A DNA stretch of 64,000 nt from Gemmatimonadales bacterium (lineage in GTDB: Bacteria > Gemmatimonadota > Gemmatimonadetes > Gemmatimonadales > GWC2-71-9). The stretch is from assembly GCA_035517615.1 (NCBI GenBank), contig DATIYM010000020.1, positions 68,699 to 132,698 on the forward strand. Reading direction: 5' to 3'. Below the pieces are notes generated by a model. That model was given only the letters and a program-made list of their open reading frames with translations. It ran no database searches and was not told the origin of the DNA. Made by a program: the position numbers and the translations under genes. Positions 6,134-34,815 of this stretch are shown piece after piece (position 1 is the first letter of the stretch; the number at the start of each line of letters is the position of its first letter).

Positions 6134-6493
6134 TCAAACCGTAAACGAGGATCCGCAGCCACAGCCCCCCGTCGCATTCGGATTCTCGAACGCGAACCCG
6201 GACTCCTGGAAGTCGCTCTTGTAGTCGATCGTGACGCCGTTCAGGTATTGCGCGCTGAAGCTGTCCACGAAGCAGCGCACCCCGCCCGTCTCGATCACGA
6301 GATCGTCTTCCATGGGCTTGTCTTCGATGTTGAGGCTGTACTTGAAGCCGGAACAGCCCCCCGGCATGACGCCGACGCGCAGCCCCGCCTGCTCGGGGGC
6401 CACGTTCTCGTCCTTCATGAACTTGAGCACTTCGGCCCCGGCCCGGTCGGTCAGGGTAAGCGTAATTGGGGTGGTCCCCTGCGTAGTCGCCAT
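6134..6493 (-). CDS. erpA: Iron-sulfur cluster insertion protein, IscA/ErpA/HesB family
   Basis: Start moved to ATG 6493 (MATTQGTTPITLT...), which is preceded by AGGAGG. Family motifs GGCSGFKY and the C-terminal CGCGSSF. Confidence 0.85.
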   Translation of the reverse strand: MATTQGTTPITLTLTDRAGAEVLKFMKDENVAPEQAGLRVGVMPGGCSGFKYSLNIEDKPMEDDLVIETGGVRCFVDSFSAQYLNGVTIDYKSDFQESGFAFENPNATGGCGCGSSFTV

Positions 6494-20264: not shown

Positions 20265-21584
20265 ATGGCTCGCATTGAAGTGTTGATGCCCCAGATGGGG
20301 GAGTCCATCGCCGAGGGCACCGTCTCGAAGTGGCTCAAGCAGGTGGGCGACGCGGTCGAGCGCGATGAGCCCCTGTTCGAGATCTCGACCGACAAGGTGG
20401 ACGCGGAGATTCCGTCGCCGGCGGCCGGCGTGCTCGCGGAGATGAAGGTGCAGCAGGGACAGACGGTGCCCGTGCAGACGCTCGTCGCGGTGATTGAGAC
20501 TGACAAGGGCGCGACCGTCGCTGCGGCGCCCGCTCCGGCGGCAGCCCCCTCCGCAGCGGCGCCCCCGCCGCGGGCGCCGGCCGCTCCGGGGGTCGCCGCC
20601 TCTGCGGTCGCTCCACAGCCCGTCGCTCCGTTGGCAGTCGCGCCACCCGCCACCGACACCGCCGAAGACCGGCTGCGCAAGAAATCGACGCCCCTGGTAC
20701 GCAAGATCGCCGCCGAGCATCACGTCGACATTGGCGCGATCCCGGGAAGTGGCCTGGGCGGACGTGTCACGAAGCAGGACATCCTGAGTTTCATCGACCA
20801 GCGCCCCACGCGCCCAGCCGCCGCCTCACCGGTAGCCGCTGCACCATCAGCCGCTGCACCATCAGCCGCCGTCGAGCCATGGCCCGGCGACCGTGTCGAG
20901 CCGTTCTCGAAAATCCGGAAGATCACGGCGGATCACATGATCATGTCGCGCCGCATCTCGGCGCACGTGACGAGCTTTTTCGAGGTCGACTACACCCGCG
21001 TGGCGGAGCTGCGCGCGAAGCACAAGGCGTCGTATCTCGAGCGCGGCGTCAAGCTCACGTTTCTCGCGTTCATCGCCAAGGCTTGCGGCGAACAGCTCCG
21101 CAAGCATCCCATCGTGAATGCCGCGGTGGCGGGAGAGCAAATCATCTACCGGGCGGACGTGAACATCGGGATCGCCGTCGCGCTCGACTGGGGGCTGATC
21201 GTCCCGGTGGTGAGGCATGCCGATGAGCTCTCGCTCATCGGTCTCGCGCGCGCGATCAACGATCTCGGCGAGCGGGCCCGCACCAAGAAACTGTCTCCCG
21301 ATGATGTGCAGCGGGGCACGTTCACGATCACGAACCCCGGCGTGTTCGGGTCGTACGCGGGCGCGCCGATCATCAATCAACCCCAGGTCGCGATTCTCGG
21401 CGTCGGTGCCATCGAGCGCCGTCCCAAAGTCGTCGTGCTGGACGGATCGGAAGCGCTGGCGATACGCACCATGGGCATGGTGTCGATGTCGTACGATCAC
21501 CGGGTGGTGGACGGCGCCGACGCCGATCGCTTCCTCGCCGACGTGAAGGTCCTGCTCGAGAATTTCCCCGAAGGCGCCGTGTGA
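20265..21584 (+). CDS. Dihydrolipoamide acyltransferase (E2) with one lipoyl domain
   Basis: Lipoyl-lysine motif EISTDKVDAEIPSP, an Ala/Pro linker, a peripheral-subunit-binding domain (PLVRKIAAEHHVDIGAIPGSGLGGRVTKQDI) and the catalytic SYDHRVVDGA. Confidence 0.9.
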   Translation: MARIEVLMPQMGESIAEGTVSKWLKQVGDAVERDEPLFEISTDKVDAEIPSPAAGVLAEMKVQQGQTVPVQTLVAVIETDKGATVAAAPAPAAAPSAAAPPPRAPAAPGVAASAVAPQPVAPLAVAPPATDTAEDRLRKKSTPLVRKIAAEHHVDIGAIPGSGLGGRVTKQDILSFIDQRPTRPAAASPVAAAPSAAAPSAAVEPWPGDRVEPFSKIRKITADHMIMSRRISAHVTSFFEVDYTRVAELRAKHKASYLERGVKLTFLAFIAKACGEQLRKHPIVNAAVAGEQIIYRADVNIGIAVALDWGLIVPVVRHADELSLIGLARAINDLGERARTKKLSPDDVQRGTFTITNPGVFGSYAGAPIINQPQVAILGVGAIERRPKVVVLDGSEALAIRTMGMVSMSYDHRVVDGADADRFLADVKVLLENFPEGAV

Positions 21585-21925
21585 GCACCCGCGATTCGCT
21601 TCCCCGCGTGCTCACGGCGTCGCGGGTCCGGGTGCCGCCCACGAGCGAGGCCGATTACCTTGCGGTCCTCCGGCAGCTCGCCCAGTTCGCCGTGGCGCGG
21701 GGGCAGCGGATCTGGGTGTTTCGCAGCGCCAAGGATCCGCAGCTGTTCATCGAGTTCTCCGAGAGCCCGACCGAGATGTCGCACCGCGCGCAGGCCTCGA
21801 GATTGCCGGAAGAGCTGAAGCTCGAGCGGCAGCTCCAGAAGATTGCCACCTACGCTCCCGACGCGTGGGAGCTGTGGACCGAAGTCCCGCTCGCGCTCCC
21901 GGAAGAACCCGAGCCGGAACTCTGA
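21581..21925 (+). CDS. Hypothetical protein (114 aa) coupled to E2
   Basis: GTGA overlap with the E2 stop. High third-position GC and a protein-like composition. No motif recognised. Confidence 0.45.
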   Translation: MSTRDSLPRVLTASRVRVPPTSEADYLAVLRQLAQFAVARGQRIWVFRSAKDPQLFIEFSESPTEMSHRAQASRLPEELKLERQLQKIATYAPDAWELWTEVPLALPEEPEPEL

Positions 21926-21931
21926 GGGCGC

Positions 21932-22201
21932 ATGGCGCGACGCACTATCGTTGTCAACGGCGAAACGTGGGACGTGTACCCCTCGGGGCGCGTGACCATT
22001 TACAACAAGGATCAATTCGGGCTGGAGTTCGAGTACGGCACGGGGCCCGAGCGCAAACGGCGCTTCACGCGCTATTCGCCGGTCGGCAGCCGGATGCCCG
22101 ATGCGTCGCTGCAGGAGTTGTCGGAGCACGAGCTGCGATCGCTGTTCGCCCAGTCTCAGCCCGCATGGACATCCCCGGAGGGCTCCTACGGCGTACGTTG
22201 A
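21932..22201 (+). CDS. Hypothetical protein (89 aa)
   Basis: ATG 21932. Third-position GC is clearly higher in this frame than in the overlapping PHP-frame ORF across 22101-22199. No motif recognised. Confidence 0.5.
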   Translation: MARRTIVVNGETWDVYPSGRVTIYNKDQFGLEFEYGTGPERKRRFTRYSPVGSRMPDASLQELSEHELRSLFAQSQPAWTSPEGSYGVR

Positions 22202-23045
22202 CCTTCACTGCCACTCCACCGCGTCTGACGGGGAGTCGCTACCGGCGGACGTCGTGCGGCACGCGCAACGCGCCGGCTTGTCGGCGATCGCGCTCACCGA
22301 CCACGACACGACCGATGGCGTCGCCGAGGCCGCGCGCGCCGGCGCGCCGCTCGGCGTGCGGGTCATCTGTGCCTGCGAATTCAGCACGCGGGCGCCGTGG
22401 GGCGAGATGCACGTGCTCGGCTACTTTCTCACCGCGGAAGACGATCGGCTTCAGTCCTTTCTGGTCGAGACGCGGGCGGCGCGGCGCCGGCGCGGCGAGC
22501 AGATGGTCGAGAAGCTTCGGCAGCTCGGGCTCGATATCGCCCTTTCCGACGTGGCGGCGCGTGCCGGGGCCGGCGCCGTGGGCCGGCCTCATGTAGCTCG
22601 CGCGCTCGTCGATCGAGGGATCACGCGGGATATCAACGAGGCGTTCGAACGGTTCATTGGGAAGGGACGGGCGGCGTTCGTGGAGAAGCCGCTCCCCACG
22701 CTCGACCACGTGACCGCGCTGGTGCGTGAAGGGGGTGGGCTGTCGGTCGCGGCTCACCTCGGCGATCACGGCACCGAGCCCCAGATTCGCCAGTTCGTCG
22801 AGCAGGGCCTCGATGGCGTCGAGGTCCGCCACCCCAGCCATTCGGTGGCGACCGAGGCCCGGCTCACCCGCATCGCGAATCGCCTCGATCTCGTGATCAG
22901 CGGCGGCTCGGACTGGCACGGAGAAACAGAGTTCGGGACGTCGCACGCCGCTCTCGGAGGTCTCGACATCCCGTCCGCGTGGCTCGAGCGACTCGAGGCG
23001 CGGCGCGATCAACCTTCCACTTCCGTCGCGAAGGGAACCGCATGA
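22101..23045 (+). CDS. PHP-domain phosphoesterase (TrpH/YciV-like); true start uncertain
   Basis: The conserved core begins at VDLHCHSTASDG (nt 22197) and continues ALTDHDT... The only canonical in-frame start is ATG 22101, which overlaps the upstream gene by 101 nt. Confidence 0.7.
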   Translation: MRRCRSCRSTSCDRCSPSLSPHGHPRRAPTAYVDLHCHSTASDGESLPADVVRHAQRAGLSAIALTDHDTTDGVAEAARAGAPLGVRVICACEFSTRAPWGEMHVLGYFLTAEDDRLQSFLVETRAARRRRGEQMVEKLRQLGLDIALSDVAARAGAGAVGRPHVARALVDRGITRDINEAFERFIGKGRAAFVEKPLPTLDHVTALVREGGGLSVAAHLGDHGTEPQIRQFVEQGLDGVEVRHPSHSVATEARLTRIANRLDLVISGGSDWHGETEFGTSHAALGGLDIPSAWLERLEARRDQPSTSVAKGTA

Positions 23046-23482
23046 GCGAATTGCTGCCGGTCGGGTCGAAGGCTCCCGTGTTCGCGGCGCAGGCCTCCGA
23101 TGGTCGGACGTATCGTCTGGAGGACCTGCTCGCCCATCAGCACGTGGCACTCGTGTTCTATCCCGGCAACGATACCCCCGGGTGAAACCGTCAACTCTCC
23201 GCCGTGCGCGATGAGCTGACGTTGTTCACGGGTCGTGGGATTCAGCCGTTCGGGGTCAACCCGGCAGGGCTGGACAGCCACGAGAAATACGTGAAGAAAA
23301 TGAACTTCAATTTCCCGCTGCTCACCGATCCCGATCGCTCCATCGCGCGGGCGTATCATGCGCTGAAGGACGACGACAAGGGCATTCAGCGTACCGTGTA
23401 CGTCGTCAAGCGCGACGGCACGATCGCCTTTGCCCAGCGCGGCGCCCCGCCGGTGAACGACATCGTGGCCGCCGTCGAATAG
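23042..23482 (+). CDS. Bcp/PrxQ-type peroxiredoxin with in-frame TGA at the peroxidatic Cys position (predicted selenocysteine, U48)
   Basis: Listed ORFs 22979..23185 and 23204..23482 are in the same frame, interrupted only by TGA 23183-23185. The merged product reads MSELLPVGSKAPVF...VALVFYPGNDTPG-U-NRQLSAVRDELTLF...NFPLLTDPDRSIARAY, which matches the Bcp pattern FYPxxxTPGCTxxxxxxRD...FxLLSD. The ATGA overlaps the PHP gene stop. Confidence 0.75.
23186..23221 (+). promoter_or_regulatory. Candidate bacterial SECIS hairpin
   Basis: Begins 3 nt after the TGA. cgucaacuc (23189-23197) pairs with gagcugacg (23213-23221): 9 positions with one A-C mismatch. An inner 3-bp helix closes a CGUGC apical loop about 20 nt from the UGA. 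Confidence 0.5.
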
Positions 23483-24981: not shown

Positions 24982-25977
24982 ATGACTCAGAACCCAACCA
25001 GTTACGACGTGATCATCGTTGGCGCCGGGCCGGCTGGCTTGTGCGCCGCTCTATATGCCGGGCGCGGGATGCTAAGAGCGCTCGTGATCGAGCGCGGGGC
25101 TCCGGGCGGCGAGCTGCTCAACACCGATCTCATCGAGGACTATATCGGCTTCGAGAGCATCAAGGGGGTCGAGCTGGCCCAGAAGATGGCCGAGCACGCG
25201 CGCAAATTCGGGGCTGAATTCCTGACCGACACCGTGGAGCGCATCCAGCGGCTGCCGGACGGAGGCTTCGAGATCGCCACGGCGCGCGAGCGAGTGTTCC
25301 GCGCACCGGCCGTGATCCTCACGGCTGGCGGTACACCCGTAAAGCTCGGCGTGCCGGGTGAAAAAGAATTCGCAGGGCAGGGGGTGTCGTACTGCGCCGT
25401 ATGCGACGGTGCGTTCTTCAAGGGCGAAGTGCTCGCCGTCATCGGCGGTGGCGACGCGGCCGTGGAAGAGGCGGACTACCTCACCCGGTATGGGAGCAAG
25501 GTCTACATCGTCCATCGGCGGCATGAATTCCGCGCGTCGAGGATCATTCAGGAGCGCGCACTCGCGAATCCGAAAATCGAGGTGGTTTGGAACAAACGCG
25601 TGCTCGAGATCGTGGGACGCACGCAGATGGTCGGCGACGAGCTTCCCGGGGTGAAGCATCTCGCGCTCGAGGACACGCTCACGGGCGCACACTCGCAGCT
25701 CACGGTAGGCGGCGTGTTCATCTTCATTGGCTTCAAGCCGAACACCGGCATGCTGACGGAGCACTTCCGCCACGATGTGGGGGGCCACTTCATCACGGAT
25801 GAACGAATGATGACGTCGATTCCGGGGCTGTTCGCCGCCGGCGACGTCCGGAGTCAGCTGACCCGCCAGATCACGACGGCGGTTGGTGATGCCACGACCG
25901 CCGCGCTCGCGGTCGAGAAGTACCTCGCGGTGCTGCGCGAGAAGGGCAAGACCGAGGCGGCCGCGATCGTCTCATGA
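24982..25977 (+). CDS. trxB: Thioredoxin-disulfide reductase
   Basis: VIIVGAGPAGLCAALYA FAD motif, redox-active CAVCDG, and GGGDAAVEEA NADPH motif. Confidence 0.9.
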   Translation: MTQNPTSYDVIIVGAGPAGLCAALYAGRGMLRALVIERGAPGGELLNTDLIEDYIGFESIKGVELAQKMAEHARKFGAEFLTDTVERIQRLPDGGFEIATARERVFRAPAVILTAGGTPVKLGVPGEKEFAGQGVSYCAVCDGAFFKGEVLAVIGGGDAAVEEADYLTRYGSKVYIVHRRHEFRASRIIQERALANPKIEVVWNKRVLEIVGRTQMVGDELPGVKHLALEDTLTGAHSQLTVGGVFIFIGFKPNTGMLTEHFRHDVGGHFITDERMMTSIPGLFAAGDVRSQLTRQITTAVGDATTAALAVEKYLAVLREKGKTEAAAIVS

Positions 25978-28369: not shown

Positions 28370-28457
28370 CTCCGTCCAGGGCAAACCACGGGTGACCGTG
28401 GGACGCAAAGCCACAGGGTCTCGACGCAATCCGTTGAGACAGCCTAGCCGCCGGGAG
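28370..28457 (+). promoter_or_regulatory. c-di-GMP-I (GEMM-I) riboswitch aptamer candidate in the pilin leader
   Basis: CAGGGCAAACC (28377-87). A perfect 6-bp hairpin CCACGG-GUGA-CCGUGG with a GNRA tetraloop (28386-28401). GGGACGCAAAGCC (28400-12). A 9-bp P3-like hairpin GUCUCGACG-CAAUC-CGUUGAGAC (28418-40). A closing CUCCG / CGG(G)AG P1. This closely parallels my recollection of the V. cholerae Vc2 aptamer: CAGGGCAAACC..GAAA..GGGACGCAAAGCC. Confidence 0.6.
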
Positions 28458-28561: not shown

Positions 28562-28981
28562 ATGTTGGGTCGTCGCGGCTTCACACTCATCGAGCTGCTC
28601 ATCGTGGTGGTCATCATCGGCATTCTCGCCGCCATCGCGATCCCGAAATTCGCCAACACGAAGGAAAAGGCGTACATCGCCTCGATGAAGTCCGACCTTC
28701 GGAACCTGGTTACCGCCGAAGAGGCCTATTTCGCCGACTCAGTGAAGTACTCGACCCAGGTGTCCTGCGCCAATCCGCCCGCCGCGGGTAAGGTGGCGTT
28801 CTGCACGACGACCGGAAACACGCTGGGCACGCCGACGGTGGGCACGGGCACGCAGGCGGGGTGGACGGCGAGCATCACGAACCTCAACACCACGAAGAGC
28901 TGCGCGATCTACGTGGGGGCAGTGACCCCCGCGGCCCCGGGGCAAACTACCGATCCGGAGGGCGCGCCGGTCTGCCGATAA
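28562..28981 (+). CDS. pilA: Type IV pilin (prepilin-type N-terminal cleavage/methylation domain)
   Basis: MLGRRG|FTLIELLIVVVIIGILAAIAIPKF is the class III signal, followed by a hydrophobic alpha-1 helix. 139 aa. Confidence 0.9.
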   Translation: MLGRRGFTLIELLIVVVIIGILAAIAIPKFANTKEKAYIASMKSDLRNLVTAEEAYFADSVKYSTQVSCANPPAAGKVAFCTTTGNTLGTPTVGTGTQAGWTASITNLNTTKSCAIYVGAVTPAAPGQTTDPEGAPVCR

Positions 28982-30583: not shown

Positions 30584-31039
30584 ATGCGAATCACCACCTG
30601 GGGTGAATACGGCCTGATCGTCTCCGTGAGCCTGGCACGGCGGGCGGGAGAAGGTCCGGTCGCCGCTCGGGAGTTGGCTGAGCAGGAGCGGCTGCCCCAT
30701 GATTACGTCGAACAGATCCTGCTGCGCCTGCGGCGTGCGGGTCTGGTGGAGTCGGTTCGGGGAGCCAAGGGCGGCTACCAGCTCGCCCGCTCGCCCGAGC
30801 ATGTCACCGTCAAAGACGTCATTTCCGCCTCAGAGCACGTCACCTTCGAAGTCAACTGCGACGCCCATCCTGTCGACCCGCACCGATGTAGCCGGGACGC
30901 GTCGTGCAGCATCCGGCCGGTGTGGCGGATGCTCGAACAGCGTGTCAACGAGCTGCTGTCGAGCATTTCGCTCGCCGACCTGACGACGCACGACGAGCCG
31001 ACCGTCTATCAGATTACTGGAGTAATGGTCGGGAACTAG
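30584..31039 (+). CDS. Rrf2-family transcriptional regulator (IscR/CymR-like, three clustered Cys)
   Basis: MRITTWGEYGLIVSVSLA...LVESVRGAKGGYQLAR winged helix-turn-helix. A C-x9-C-x6-C cluster (CDAHPVDPHRCSRDASC). Confidence 0.85.
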   Translation: MRITTWGEYGLIVSVSLARRAGEGPVAARELAEQERLPHDYVEQILLRLRRAGLVESVRGAKGGYQLARSPEHVTVKDVISASEHVTFEVNCDAHPVDPHRCSRDASCSIRPVWRMLEQRVNELLSSISLADLTTHDEPTVYQITGVMVGN

Positions 31040-31071
31040 CCTCACTACAACATCGTTTTTTTTCTGATCCC

Positions 31072-31096
31072 AAACCCGACTGGCGACGTCGGGTTT
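31072..31096 (+). terminator. Hairpin between the Rrf2 gene and the rhodanese gene (terminator or attenuator candidate)
   Basis: aaacccgac (31072-80) pairs with gtcgggttt (31088-96) around a 7-nt loop. A T8 run lies 8 nt upstream (31056-63). Confidence 0.4.
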
Positions 31097-31128
31097 CGAT
31101 CTCGTATTTGGATCACAGGGGAGACACT

Positions 31129-31980
31129 ATGGTGGACTACGCGCATCCGGAGGTGCTGGTCTCGACAGCATGGGTCGGCGAGCATCTCCATGATCCCGAC
31201 ATCCGGCTGATCGAAGTCGATGTCGACACGACGGCATACGATTCGGGCCACATCGAGGGAGCGGTGGGCTGGAACTGGCAGTCACAGCTCAACGACCGGC
31301 TGCGGCGCGACATTCCCGACGCGCGCGCATTTGCGGACCTACTGAGCGCGGCTGGAGTGACGCCGAAGACTGCGGTCGTGCTGTACGGAGACAACAACAA
31401 CTGGTTCGCCGCGTTCGCATTCTGGCTGCTGCAGCTGTACGGCCACAAGCGCGTGCGGCTGATGAACGGTGGACGCGCGAAGTGGGTTGCCGAGCAGCGC
31501 GCGCTCGTCACCGCGCCAGCCAACGTAGCGCGCACGAACTATCCCGCGCCAAAGCGGGCCAACACCGCGCTGCGCGCCAAGCGCCCGGATATCGAGCGGG
31601 CGCTGCGCGGCAAGTCGATCGGTCTCGTGGATGTGCGTTCGCCCGCCGAATTCGTGGGCGATATCGTTGCTCCGCCAGGAATGACCGAAACCGCACAACG
31701 CGCGGGCCACATTCCCGGCGCGCACAACGTGCCCTGGGCTCAGGCGGTGGCTCCCGATGGCACATTCAAACCGCGCGAAGAGTTGGAGCGCTTGTATCGT
31801 CAGGCGGGCGTGCTCGACCGTGACGAGGTCATCGCGTACTGCCGCATCGGCGAACGCTCGAGCCACACGTGGTTCGCGCTCAAATACCTGCTCGGCGTGG
31901 ACAAGGTCCGAAATTATGATGGCTCGTGGACCGAGTGGGGCAATCTGATCGGGGCGCCAATTGTGAAGGGGAGCGAGTGA
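31129..31980 (+). CDS. sseA: Two-domain rhodanese, thiosulfate/3-mercaptopyruvate sulfurtransferase (SseA-like)
   Basis: Start moved to ATG 31129 (GGGGAG upstream). HIEGAVGWNW, HIPGAHNVPW and the active-site loop CRIGERSS. Confidence 0.85.
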   Translation: MVDYAHPEVLVSTAWVGEHLHDPDIRLIEVDVDTTAYDSGHIEGAVGWNWQSQLNDRLRRDIPDARAFADLLSAAGVTPKTAVVLYGDNNNWFAAFAFWLLQLYGHKRVRLMNGGRAKWVAEQRALVTAPANVARTNYPAPKRANTALRAKRPDIERALRGKSIGLVDVRSPAEFVGDIVAPPGMTETAQRAGHIPGAHNVPWAQAVAPDGTFKPREELERLYRQAGVLDRDEVIAYCRIGERSSHTWFALKYLLGVDKVRNYDGSWTEWGNLIGAPIVKGSE

Positions 31981-32930
31981 AAACGGCGGCGGATCGGCGG
32001 ACCGGCGGACCGGCGGTCCGTGGAGACTTCATCGAGCCGATATTGTGGAGTCTTGTTGGGAACACGCCGTTGCTCCCGCTCGATCCGCCGATCCGCCCAT
32101 CCGCCGGTCCGCCCGTCTTTCTCAAGGCCGAGTGGTTCAATCCGGGCGGCAGCGTCAAGGATCGGCCGGCCCTGTTCATTTTGCGTGATGGAGTGGCGCG
32201 ACGCGCGCTGCCGGGAAAGCGCCTGCTCGATGCCACGAGCGGGAATACCGGCATCGCGTACGCGATGCTCGGAGCCGCGGCCGGCATTGGCGTGACGCTG
32301 TGTGTGCCGGCAAACGCCAGCGTTGAGCGCAAGGTGCTGCTCGAGGCCTACGGCGCCGACGTCATCTACACCGATCCACTCGAGGGGACGGATGGCGCGA
32401 TCCGCCGCGCGCAGTCGCTTGCGGCCGCGGAGCCCGACCGCTACTGGTACGCCGACCAGTACAACAATCCCGCGAACCCGGAAGCGCACGCGATCACCAC
32501 CGCTCAGGAGATCTGGCGTCAGACCGAAGGCCGCGTCACGCGGCTCGTCGCCGGACTGGGCACGACCGGAACGCTCATGGGAACGGGTCGGCGGCTGCGC
32601 GAGCTGAGCCCGAACATCGAGTTGGTCGCGGTCCAGCCCGAGGGGCCGTTTCACGGGCTCGAAGGTCTCAAGCATCTGGCTACCGCCATCGTCCCCGGCA
32701 TCTACAATCCCTCGATTCCCGACCGCACGGAGTTCGTCGCCACCGAGGCTGCCGAAGCCATGGTGCGCCGACTGGCGCGTGAGGCCGGGCTATTTGTGGG
32801 CTGGTCAGCCGGTGCCGCCGTGGTCGCGGCCGAGCGGCTTCCGGGCTCCGCGCTGACCGTCGTGATTGCCCCCGATTCGGGCATGCGCTACCTGAGCGAG
32901 CGCGAGCGGGTCGAGGGCACCGCGCTATGA
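31977..32930 (+). CDS. cysM: PLP-dependent cysteine synthase, CysM-like (thiocarboxylate-dependent candidate)
   Basis: The GTGA start overlaps the sseA stop. LVGNTPLL, NPGGSVKDRPA (PLP lysine), ATSGNTGIAYA. Confidence 0.85.
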   Translation: MKTAADRRTGGPAVRGDFIEPILWSLVGNTPLLPLDPPIRPSAGPPVFLKAEWFNPGGSVKDRPALFILRDGVARRALPGKRLLDATSGNTGIAYAMLGAAAGIGVTLCVPANASVERKVLLEAYGADVIYTDPLEGTDGAIRRAQSLAAAEPDRYWYADQYNNPANPEAHAITTAQEIWRQTEGRVTRLVAGLGTTGTLMGTGRRLRELSPNIELVAVQPEGPFHGLEGLKHLATAIVPGIYNPSIPDRTEFVATEAAEAMVRRLAREAGLFVGWSAGAAVVAAERLPGSALTVVIAPDSGMRYLSERERVEGTAL

Positions 32931-33379
32931 CGCTGTTCCTGGACGCGAACTTCGTCGCGGCAATTCGCCGCCAGGGCGAAGCGGACTATCCACGAGAGAC
33001 CTGTGGCCTGATGGCGGGATCAAAGCGAGGCGAGAGCACGCGCGTGACGCGTCTCGTTCCCGTGACCAACACCCGGACCGATTCGGCGCACAATCGCTAT
33101 CTTATCGACCCAGAAGAATACCGGCGGGCGCAGATCGAGCTCGACGCCGCGGGTCTCGAGATCGTCGGTATCTATCATTCGCACCCCGACCACCCGGCGC
33201 AGCCATCCGAGTTCGATCGGGAACATGCGCTGCCGTGGTGGAGCTATGTGATTGTGAGAGTCGCGGCGGGACATGCGCAGGAGGTTCGCAGTTGGCGACT
33301 CGTGGACGATCGTTCGATGTTTCAAGAGGAATCCATAACGCAAGACGAACGGAAGGTTGCATGGCAGTCACCGTCCTGA
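32927..33379 (+). CDS. mec: JAMM/MPN+ metallopeptidase (Mec-like)
   Basis: ETCGLMAG plus the HSHPDHPAQPSEFD JAMM motif (E...HxHx7Sx2D). ATGA overlap with cysM. Confidence 0.85.
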   Translation: MTLFLDANFVAAIRRQGEADYPRETCGLMAGSKRGESTRVTRLVPVTNTRTDSAHNRYLIDPEEYRRAQIELDAAGLEIVGIYHSHPDHPAQPSEFDREHALPWWSYVIVRVAAGHAQEVRSWRLVDDRSMFQEESITQDERKVAWQSPS

Positions 33380-34815
33380 TCCCCACTCCACTCCGTCCGT
33401 TTGTAAACGGAAAAGACGCCGTCCAGCTGGAAGGCGGCAGCGTACGCGAGCTGCTCGAGCGGCTCACGCGCGACCATGCCGAGCTCGGCCGCCATCTATT
33501 TGCCGAAGACGGGCGGCTGCGGAGCTTCGTGAACGTGTACGTGAACGATCGGGACATCCGCCATCTGGCGCAGCAGGACACGCGCGTGAGCGCGGGCGAT
33601 ACGGTGTCGATCATCCCCAGCATCGCGGGTGGGGCGGGAACGATCAGCGTCACGCGCAAGCCCGCCGCGGCCCGGTCGCTTCCCAAGCTTTCGCACGAAG
33701 AAATTCTGCGCTATTCGCGCCATCTCATTCTCCCCGACGTGGGACTCGAGGGCCAGCGCAAACTCAAGGCGGCTCGCGTTCTGCTCATCGGCGCCGGTGG
33801 ACTCGGCTCGCCTGCCGCCCTGTATCTGGCCGCGGCGGGCGTCGGCACGATTGGCCTCGTGGACTTTGACGTCGTGGACTCGACCAATCTCCAGCGTCAG
33901 ATCGTGCACGGCACATCGACGGTGGGCGTGTCCAAACTCGAATCGGCGCGGCGCCGCATCAGGGATTTGAATCCGAACGTGCAGGTCGAGGGATTCGAGA
34001 CGCGGCTTACCTCCGAGAACGCGCTCGACATCATCAAGGATTTCGACATCGTCGCCGACGGAACGGACAATTTCGCCACCCGCTATCTCGTGAACGATGC
34101 CTGCGTGCTGCTCGGCAAACCGAACGTGTACGGCTCGATTTTCCGCTTCGAGGGACAGGCGTCGGTGTTCTATGCCAAACAAGGGCCGTGCTATCGCTGC
34201 CTCTATCCCGAGCCGCCGCCTCCGGGACTCGTCCCGTCCTGCGCGGAGGGCGGCGTGCTGGGGGTGCTGCCCGGAATCGTGGGCTCGATTCAGGCGCTCG
34301 AAGCGATCAAACTGGTGATCGGCAACGGCGAGACCCTCATCGGTCGACTGGTGCTGTTCGACGCGCTGCGGCTCAAGTTCCGCGAGCTGAAGCTCGAAAA
34401 GGATCCCAATTGCCCCATCTGCGGCCGGAATCCGACGATCACCTCGCTCATCGACTACGAGGCGTTCTGCGGCGTCACGCCGGAGCCTGGGTATCCCGGC
34501 GCCGAGGTGACCGCGCTCGATCTGAAGGAAGAGATCGACGCCGGCAAGCCGATCGTGGTGCTCGACGTACGCGAGCCGCACGAAGCGGAAATCGCGACCA
34601 TCGAGGGCGCCAAGCTCATTCCGCTTGGTGAGCTCCCCGATCGGTTACGTGAACTCGATGACCACGCCGAGATCGTCACTCATTGTCATCATGGTGCCCG
34701 CGCCGCCAAGGCGCTCGAGATTCTCCGGGCCGCGGGATTCCAGAAGGCCCGAATGCTGGCGGGTGGGATCGACGCGTGGGCGGTAAATGTGGATCCGGAG
34801 ATGCCTAGGTACTAA
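33361..34815 (+). CDS. Fusion protein: CysO/MoaD/ThiS-like beta-grasp sulfur carrier (aa 1-91, ends GG) + MoeB/ThiF E1-like adenylyltransferase + C-terminal rhodanese (MoeZ-like)
   Basis: ATG 33361 (GGAAGG upstream). The N-terminal 91 aa read MAVTVLIPTPLRPF...GDTVSIIPSIAGG (GG codons at 33628-33633). The frame continues without a stop into LSHEEILRYSRHLILPDVGLEGQRKLKAARVLLIGAGGLGSP, CYRC, CAEGGVLG, CPIC and the rhodanese loop CHHGARA. Confidence 0.8.
   Translation: MAVTVLIPTPLRPFVNGKDAVQLEGGSVRELLERLTRDHAELGRHLFAEDGRLRSFVNVYVNDRDIRHLAQQDTRVSAGDTVSIIPSIAGGAGTISVTRKPAAARSLPKLSHEEILRYSRHLILPDVGLEGQRKLKAARVLLIGAGGLGSPAALYLAAAGVGTIGLVDFDVVDSTNLQRQIVHGTSTVGVSKLESARRRIRDLNPNVQVEGFETRLTSENALDIIKDFDIVADGTDNFATRYLVNDACVLLGKPNVYGSIFRFEGQASVFYAKQGPCYRCLYPEPPPPGLVPSCAEGGVLGVLPGIVGSIQALEAIKLVIGNGETLIGRLVLFDALRLKFRELKLEKDPNCPICGRNPTITSLIDYEAFCGVTPEPGYPGAEVTALDLKEEIDAGKPIVVLDVREPHEAEIATIEGAKLIPLGELPDRLRELDDHAEIVTHCHHGARAAKALEILRAAGFQKARMLAGGIDAWAVNVDPEMPRY

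Follow-up and report, generated by a model that had tools for sequence, protein, structure and literature searches.

A conserved in-frame TGA at the peroxidatic position of a Gemmatimonadales peroxiredoxin predicts a selenoprotein without cysteine

What does a TGA codon do in the middle of an otherwise intact peroxiredoxin gene? The question is raised by a stretch of 64,000 nucleotides from a Gemmatimonadales bacterium (GenBank assembly GCA_035517615.1, contig DATIYM010000020.1, positions 68,699 to 132,698; hereafter the window), in which an earlier reading of the sequence alone had joined two adjacent open reading frames (ORFs) into one peroxiredoxin gene with selenocysteine (Sec) in place of its catalytic cysteine. 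Re-reading of the sequence confirmed that the two ORFs, 22979..23185 and 23204..23482, lie in one frame and that the TGA is the sole interruption between them (Table 1). Translation of the gene on the plus strand gives 146 residues with a single internal stop, this TGA, ahead of the terminal TAG. The predicted selenoprotein gained support: the TGA stands at the cysteine column in 155 of 160 orthologous loci, both halves of the gene are under constraint, and a hairpin resembling a selenocysteine insertion sequence (SECIS) is linked to the TGA. On this evidence we consider, with a probability of roughly 0.9, that this is one intact gene for a BCP/PrxQ-like peroxiredoxin of a single domain, with selenocysteine as the peroxidatic residue.

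The product obtained by reading through the TGA was compared with protein family profiles after substituting Cys at the UGA position. The AhpC/TSA profile PF00578 was matched end to end at 108.8 bits, against a cutoff of 26, with residues 7–130 aligned to profile positions 1–123 of 124, so that the claim of a complete Bcp/PrxQ-type peroxiredoxin held. The scores against the NCBIfam equivalog models for Bcp (NF006960, 61.8 bits versus a cutoff of 140) and PrxQ (NF053650, 57.8 bits versus 260) were below their cutoffs, and because the window protein lies below every NCBIfam equivalog cutoff, its family membership is assigned at the superfamily or class level only. The active-site motif PxxxTxxC/U is present, with P41, T45 and U48 at the defining positions, and Thr45 and the catalytic arginine, Arg117, are invariant in alignments with full-length homologues. 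In all of the full-length database homologues (147–154 residues, at most 78% identical to the window protein), the column of the TGA is occupied by the invariant Cys of TPG-C-NRQL, which places the TGA exactly at the catalytic cysteine of the family, as had been proposed. The second, resolving cysteine of the family pattern CTxxxC that the sequence-only reading had given does not apply here, since CNRQLSA is the sequence in this clade and Cys is missing altogether from the window protein, including at the fifth position after the peroxidatic cysteine (CP+5). A thioredoxin-like UxxC motif is likewise absent from the window protein, the sequence being T-P-G-U-N-R-Q with no Cys at U+3. Because it has no Cys of any kind, the protein is, as judged from its translated sequence, a ‘1-Sec’ enzyme analogous to the 1-Cys enzymes.

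The nearest solved relatives found by a sequence search of the PDB were BCP/PrxQ enzymes and AhpE of M. tuberculosis. The structure that we modelled is that of a Cys-containing orthologue, P0001, which is 78% identical to the window protein (AlphaFold, mean predicted local distance difference test score, pLDDT, 92.3). The model consists of a single thioredoxin-fold domain with strands drawn from both sides of the TGA position, and Cys48 is located at the start of the helix formed by residues 46–57. Its TM-scores to 5ENU, 3DRN and 1XVW (AhpE) are 0.83–0.88.

The TGA is conserved across an order-level clade. The survey covered 160 orthologous loci, 80 of them from species-representative genomes, all Gemmatimonadales or Gemmatimonadaceae metagenome-assembled genomes, and 80 from soil metagenomes. 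The codon in the catalytic column is TGA at 155 loci, TGC at four and TGT at one. The TGA forms diverge among themselves by up to 46% at the protein level, with a median identity of 76%, and the Cys forms are nested among them; for example, L173 is 88% identical to the TGA form L090. The alternation of TGA with Cys codons that an alignment of orthologues had been expected to reveal was therefore found, at 155 TGA versus five TGC or TGT codons. The Gemmatimonadaceae Cys loci L076 and L080 are the farthest from the TGA forms. No Cys at all is present in 152 of the 154 Sec forms.

To both sides of the TGA, the gene bears the marks of a translated sequence. In 143 unique full-length TGA forms, no second stops or frame changes were found. 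The proportions of synonymous (pS) and nonsynonymous (pN) differences among these forms were 0.562 and 0.178 in codons 1–47 upstream of the TGA (pN/pS 0.316) and 0.537 and 0.166 in codons +11 to +95 downstream of it (pN/pS 0.308). Because purifying selection on the downstream half equals that on the upstream half, we conclude that the sequence 3′ of the TGA is translated. The ten codons that directly follow the TGA (+1 to +10) differ from both, with pS 0.105, pN 0.003 and pN/pS 0.027, and synonymous divergence there is about five-fold lower than elsewhere in the gene.

This loss of synonymous freedom is visible codon by codon. After the UGA, the codons AAC, CTC, TCC, GCC, GTG, CGC and GAG are each present in 76 of 76 TGA forms, and codon entropy is ~0 bits across the frozen stretch, compared with 1.1–1.5 bits in equally conserved four-fold degenerate codons flanking it. 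The frozen stretch includes a 9-nt spacer, AACCGUCAA, that is not accounted for by the hairpin described below; the freeze begins right at the UGA, 9 nt ahead of that hairpin, and the spacer corresponds to codons +1 to +3 (23186–23194). Two codon preferences were also observed in this region: CAA is used in 72 of 76 TGA forms in the frozen stretch, though it accounts for 12% of the Gln codons in the genes of the window, and the Pro codon at −2 (23177–23179) is CCY in 69 of 76, with 20 of the 76 using CCT, which is otherwise rare. In the RNAalifold consensus, Y-G-G of the region of this Pro codon is paired with CCG after the UGA, a pairing that would put the UGA in a 6-nt loop.

The sequence-only reading had placed a hairpin at 23189–23221. 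This is indeed the minimum-free-energy (MFE) fold, with its loop 17 nt from the UGA, but conservation is confined to the inner 23195–23215. The outer stem is restricted to the window and its nearest relatives, the pairs of this stem being broken in 19–50 of 77 sequences, and the conserved core alone has a folding energy of −5.4 kcal/mol, compared with −13.3 kcal/mol for the whole. The core is identical in 153 of the 155 TGA forms. Its sole freely variable base in the RNAalifold consensus is a Y at 23212, part of the internal loop. In L163, which represents a variant strain of the window organism, C is replaced by U at 23197, and a U-G pair is retained. The apical loop, CGUGC at 23203–23207, presents G23204 and U23205. 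Compared with the bacterial SECIS (bSECIS) criteria given in the legend to Fig. 2 of PMC13188914, the loop of 5 nt, the G at its second position followed by U, the spacing of 17 nt and the energy of −13.3 kcal/mol all conform to the model. The stem conforms in part, since the model has an upper stem of 4–16 bp and here 3+3 bp are interrupted by a 2×2 internal loop.

Orthologues in which the TGA has been replaced by a Cys codon serve as a natural control for the hairpin. Eight distinct Cys forms were available: L076, L077, L080, L106 (the same protein as L171 and L172), L146, L173, L174 and L175. All eight carry one to six substitutions in codons +1 to +10, with at least one within the 21-nt core, so that the core is altered in 8 of 8 Cys forms versus 2 of 155 TGA forms (Fisher's exact test, p ~1e-12). 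Since the core is altered in every Cys form, the constraint on it is linked to the TGA, the behaviour expected of a SECIS, and the proposal of a hairpin with a G/U loop at the SECIS position is upheld for this core, which is conserved at SECIS distance. In L106/L171/L172 (TGT) and L173 (TGC), the hairpin persists as a near-intact relic with one or two substitutions in the ten codons; because so little of it has been lost, L106 and L173 point to recent Sec-to-Cys conversions. Intact, relic and erased SECIS forms are thus all present, providing a natural Sec-to-Cys series. One TGA form, L157, has a stem change from CTC to CGC, which replaces Leu by Arg. Some of the Cys forms have a second cysteine: L077 and the proteins P0010 and P0013 have it in CNRQLSC, at CP+6, and L175 has two Cys. 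These second cysteines may be resolving cysteines that were gained after Sec had been replaced by Cys.

Several observations weigh against a Sec-decoding element at this site. The conserved stem is short and lies at the weak end of the bSECIS model. In single-sequence folding, the segment 23183–23245 has a z-score of −0.31 relative to shuffled sequences, and 16–24% of synonymous recodings of the same peptide fold equally well, so thermodynamic stability is no evidence for the element. No covariation is present in the core, where it cannot support pairing because the core never varies, and covariation in the outer stem was not above that in shuffles (63/500). No SECIS family was matched in Rfam, either in a gathering-threshold scan of the window or in a permissive scan of 23100–23320. 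The evidence for the RNA element is its frozen sequence, not its folding energy. The Sec machinery itself was sought in the window, in 10 kb beyond each of its ends and in 1.32 Mb of orthologous loci, all of it sequence around this gene. ARAGORN detected no tRNA-Sec in the window or the loci, only tRNA-Leu; tblastn with E. coli SelA, SelB and SelD sequences, run with no positive control, gave no match in the loci; and no SelA, SelB or AIRS domains were among the Pfam calls in the window and the 10 kb on each side. A literature search also found no paper linking Gemmatimonadetes or Gemmatimonadota to Sec, and the supplements of three surveys hold for Gemmatimonadota a bare genome-list entry, G. 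aurantiaca, only. As all of the searched sequence surrounds this one gene, the failure to find the machinery does not count as evidence that the genome lacks it.

The same searches bear on the strongest rival to Sec insertion, namely that the hairpin promotes decoding of the UGA by a near-cognate or suppressor tRNA carrying Cys, Trp, Gly or Arg, or that an atypical recoding route is used. Such read-through would fit with the lack of Sec machinery in the sequence around the gene, and the freeze from the UGA onward could reflect tuning of the termination context instead of SelB binding. We nevertheless regard it as improbable. The UGA lies exactly at the redox-active Cys and has Cys codons as its only alternatives, the pattern classically seen for Sec/Cys pairs; catalysis would be abolished if Trp, Gly or Arg took the place of the peroxidatic residue; the geometry of the hairpin and its G-U loop match the bSECIS model; and TGA is a normal stop for neighbouring genes. 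With respect to the last point, the nearby genes for a short-chain dehydrogenase/reductase (SDR) and for thioredoxin reductase end at TGA with full-length profile matches, from which it follows that TGA is an ordinary stop in this organism, and a genome-wide reassignment of TGA was rejected on the same grounds.

How gene callers treat the locus brings up a second rival. The exact 92-residue C-terminal product is encoded on 12 contigs, of which five loci were examined (samples ERZ27256511, ERZ27256612, ERZ27256499, SRR8881005 and SRR8881010), and in all five the callers yield a product of 47 residues and one of 92. A homology search returned many matches of 92–100 residues that cover the C-terminal 63% only and start with VRDE or MRDE. 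The expectation that automated callers would split the gene was thus borne out, with dozens of such fragments in the databases. As a result, the gene is systematically mis-annotated as fragments of 47 and 92–100 residues in almost all of the 160 related sequences, and current databases do not show the residue on which catalysis by this conserved antioxidant enzyme depends. Those two products are precisely what would be made if the gene were truly split, with a 47-residue peptide ending at the UGA and translation re-initiating at the GUG in the hairpin loop to give a 92-residue fragment that is assembled with the peptide or acts separately; moreover, this GTG (23204–23206) is invariant in the TGA forms. 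Against a split gene, no Shine-Dalgarno sequence precedes the GUG, the upstream CUCUCC being pyrimidine-rich, and the six codons from the TGA to the GTG encode NRQLSA, as they do in the Cys forms, where they are translated. Both pieces also belong to one β-sheet domain, the catalytic residue would be lost, and the frame is kept in all 155 TGA forms. We consider this arrangement very unlikely.

The same five loci, which are independent assemblies of the window organism, all show the TGA, with 0–4 single-nucleotide polymorphisms elsewhere in the gene, and a base-call error at this codon is therefore unsupported. A pseudogene or a sequencing or assembly error, which a lone in-frame stop in an intact gene resembles as a fresh nonsense mutation or miscalled base, has a negligible chance of being correct and was rejected, because the same TGA recurs in the five assemblies and at 155 of the 160 loci, which represent different species and samples, and because the downstream half is constrained at the protein level as much as the upstream half (pN/pS 0.31 versus 0.32), with no extra stops, secondary lesions or decayed halves among the relatives, which rules out a pseudogene.

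If the UGA is decoded as Sec, a pathway from codon to catalysis can be proposed. In E. coli fdhF, a ribosome with the UGA in its A site has the SECIS hairpin at its mRNA entrance. By analogy, with the UGA of the peroxiredoxin mRNA in the A site, the core hairpin, which starts 12 nt after the U of the UGA, would stay folded at the mRNA entrance, and its apical G-U loop would be bound by SelB carrying GTP and Sec-tRNA(Sec). SelB would then outcompete RF2, leading to the insertion of Sec. In the folded enzyme, Sec48 would be located at the start of helix α2, where it would be activated by Thr45 and Arg117 and would attack the peroxide to form a selenenic acid. Since the protein has no Cys, recycling of this selenenic acid would require an external thiol. 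Most plausibly this would be thioredoxin, kept reduced by the thioredoxin reductase encoded 1.5 kb downstream; alternatively, glutaredoxin or a low-molecular-weight thiol could serve, as happens with M. tuberculosis AhpE and other 1-Cys enzymes.

The class of Sec-containing peroxiredoxins is already known, as the sequence-only reading had acknowledged. Sec-containing peroxiredoxins with a TxxU motif (PF00578/COG1225) were represented by 43 genes in the Sargasso Sea survey (PMC1088965) and were found in 78 organisms of a 5,200-genome survey (PMC5029168), and the family is listed with the motif PxxxTxxU in a 2026 review (PMC13188914). The window gene is a further member of this established family, with which it shares the AhpC/TSA fold, predicted Sec for the peroxidatic Cys in PxxxTxxU (here P41-T45-U48), a UGA that leads directly into a small hairpin whose apical loop contains G, and widespread Cys homologues. 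It differs from the members covered by these surveys in its lineage, the uncultured soil Gemmatimonadales, which no Sec paper that we found mentions, and it is set apart within the family by the lack of a second Cys (1-Sec) and by a SECIS-like core whose nucleotide sequence is invariant throughout the clade.

Eubacterium acidaminophilum has a selenocysteine peroxiredoxin, PrxU (Sohling et al. 2001, cited in PMC13188914), that carries Sec at the peroxidatic site, as is predicted for the window protein. The description of the corresponding NCBIfam model (NF040737) gives PrxU as thioredoxin-dependent. The window protein scores 35.3 bits against the cutoff of 270 for this model and is not a PrxU equivalog for that reason; its 146 residues also compare with 233 positions in the model. 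PrxU belongs to the AhpC/Prx1 type, and its source organism is a strict anaerobe. A closer likeness is found in AhpE (PDB 1XVW, 1XXU and 4X1U), a 1-Cys enzyme with a single redox-active residue and a need for an external reductant. AhpE and the BCP/PrxQ enzymes (3DRN, 5ENU and X. campestris PrxQ) are both the best structural matches of the P0001 model and the best PDB sequence matches, although they have Cys instead of Sec and are 22–31% identical to the window protein. The resolving Cys at CP+5 that is typical of BCP/PrxQ enzymes is missing from the window protein.

The hairpin can be compared in the same way with the fdhF SECIS of E. coli. Both hairpins lie within the coding sequence, directly after the UGA, and when the U of the UGA is counted as 1, the apical G-U is G22 U23 here and G23 U24 in fdhF. 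The two elements share no sequence similarity, the stem is shorter here, and the spacer between the UGA and the hairpin is also frozen.

The locus goes beyond a routine addition to the family in its near-universal conservation in an abundant soil order, its systematic mis-annotation, its predicted 1-Sec chemistry and the freezing of its SECIS-like core together with the 9-nt spacer. The general picture is unaffected, since Sec-peroxiredoxins are already an established family. Should Sec insertion be confirmed, a working Sec machinery and a need for selenium would be implied for a whole lineage of aerobic bacteria that is dominant in soil and not discussed in Sec surveys, and an unusually sequence-constrained SECIS would be available for studying recognition by SelB. 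A broader proposal can be put forward tentatively and is, in our estimate, rather doubtful: that Sec decoding is near-universal and so far undescribed in uncultured soil Gemmatimonadales, with this peroxiredoxin as the main and possibly only selenoprotein and with a SECIS that is sequence-frozen including its spacer. If this were true, the frozen SECIS and spacer would imply a mode of recognition by SelB or the ribosome that reads more than the apical loop, and one of the most abundant orders of soil bacteria would have a hidden selenium requirement. No credible other gene with an in-frame TGA was found in the window, recurrent matches in the orthologous loci falling in antisense frames or at gene junctions. 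Nor does the sequence of the window or the loci contain the SECIS-like core a second time. The window also holds a HesB/IscA-like gene (6134–6493, minus strand; PF01521). In other bacteria, HesB-like proteins form one of the selenoprotein families (PMC5029168), but the scan for in-frame TGA codons flagged no candidate in this gene.

Table 1 Positions in the window of the peroxiredoxin gene, its predicted Sec codon, the associated RNA features and the thioredoxin reductase gene.
Feature	Position	Strand	Basis or detail
Peroxiredoxin gene, 146 residues, predicted Sec at residue 48	23042..23482	+	Stop TAG 23480–23482
ATGA overlap of the peroxiredoxin start with the stop of the PHP-domain gene	23042..23045	+	Direct reading
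Predicted Sec codon, an in-frame UGA in place of the peroxidatic-Cys codon (P41-x3-T45-x2-U48)	23183..23185	+	Alignment to invariant Cys
Frozen synonymous sites, codons +1 to +10/11 after the UGA	23186..23217	+	Codon entropy, pS
Extended hairpin, outer 5-bp stem 23189–23193 with 23217–23221	23189..23221	+	MFE −13.3 kcal/mol
SECIS-like core hairpin CUC-UC-CGC-[CGUGC]-GCG-AU-GAG	23195..23215	+	RNAalifold consensus, 21 nt
Thioredoxin-disulfide reductase gene	24982..25977	+	TIGR01292, 347.5 bits versus equivalog cutoff 343.45

The peroxiredoxin gene lies within a conserved same-strand cluster. Upstream of it are genes for the E1-α, E1-β and E2 components of a 2-oxoacid dehydrogenase, two small ORFs and a PHP phosphoesterase, and after it come an SDR, a pteridine-reductase-like SDR, thioredoxin reductase and a metallo-β-lactamase-fold hydrolase. 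Of 72 loci with sufficient sequence, 71 have the PHP gene upstream in the same orientation. In the window, the overlap of the PHP stop with the peroxiredoxin start in an ATGA, as the sequence-only reading had described it, was verified directly, and ATGAGC or ATGAGT starts recur among the orthologous loci; we infer from the overlap that the two genes are translationally coupled. Of 60 loci with sufficient sequence, 57 carry the thioredoxin reductase gene downstream in the same orientation, and the product of this gene is inferred to be the likely electron supply for the peroxiredoxin.

The two small ORFs between the E2 and PHP genes (21581–21925 and 21932–22201, plus strand) encode 114 and 89 residues, respectively. 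Neither has a Pfam or NCBIfam match, and they are kept at that position in 65 and 70 of 80 loci, respectively.

Two features farther downstream in the window were also recorded. A c-di-GMP-I riboswitch (28370–28455, plus strand; Rfam RF01051, 52.2 bits versus a gathering threshold of 35) is located directly upstream of an ORF (28562–28981, plus strand) whose product carries the N_methyl domain PF07963 and resembles a type IV pilin. At ~30584–34815 on the plus strand, genes for an Rrf2 regulator, a rhodanese, a CysM-like PALP enzyme, a JAB metalloprotease and a ThiS/ThiF/rhodanese fusion form a cluster that resembles a sulfur-carrier-protein cysteine biosynthesis pathway.

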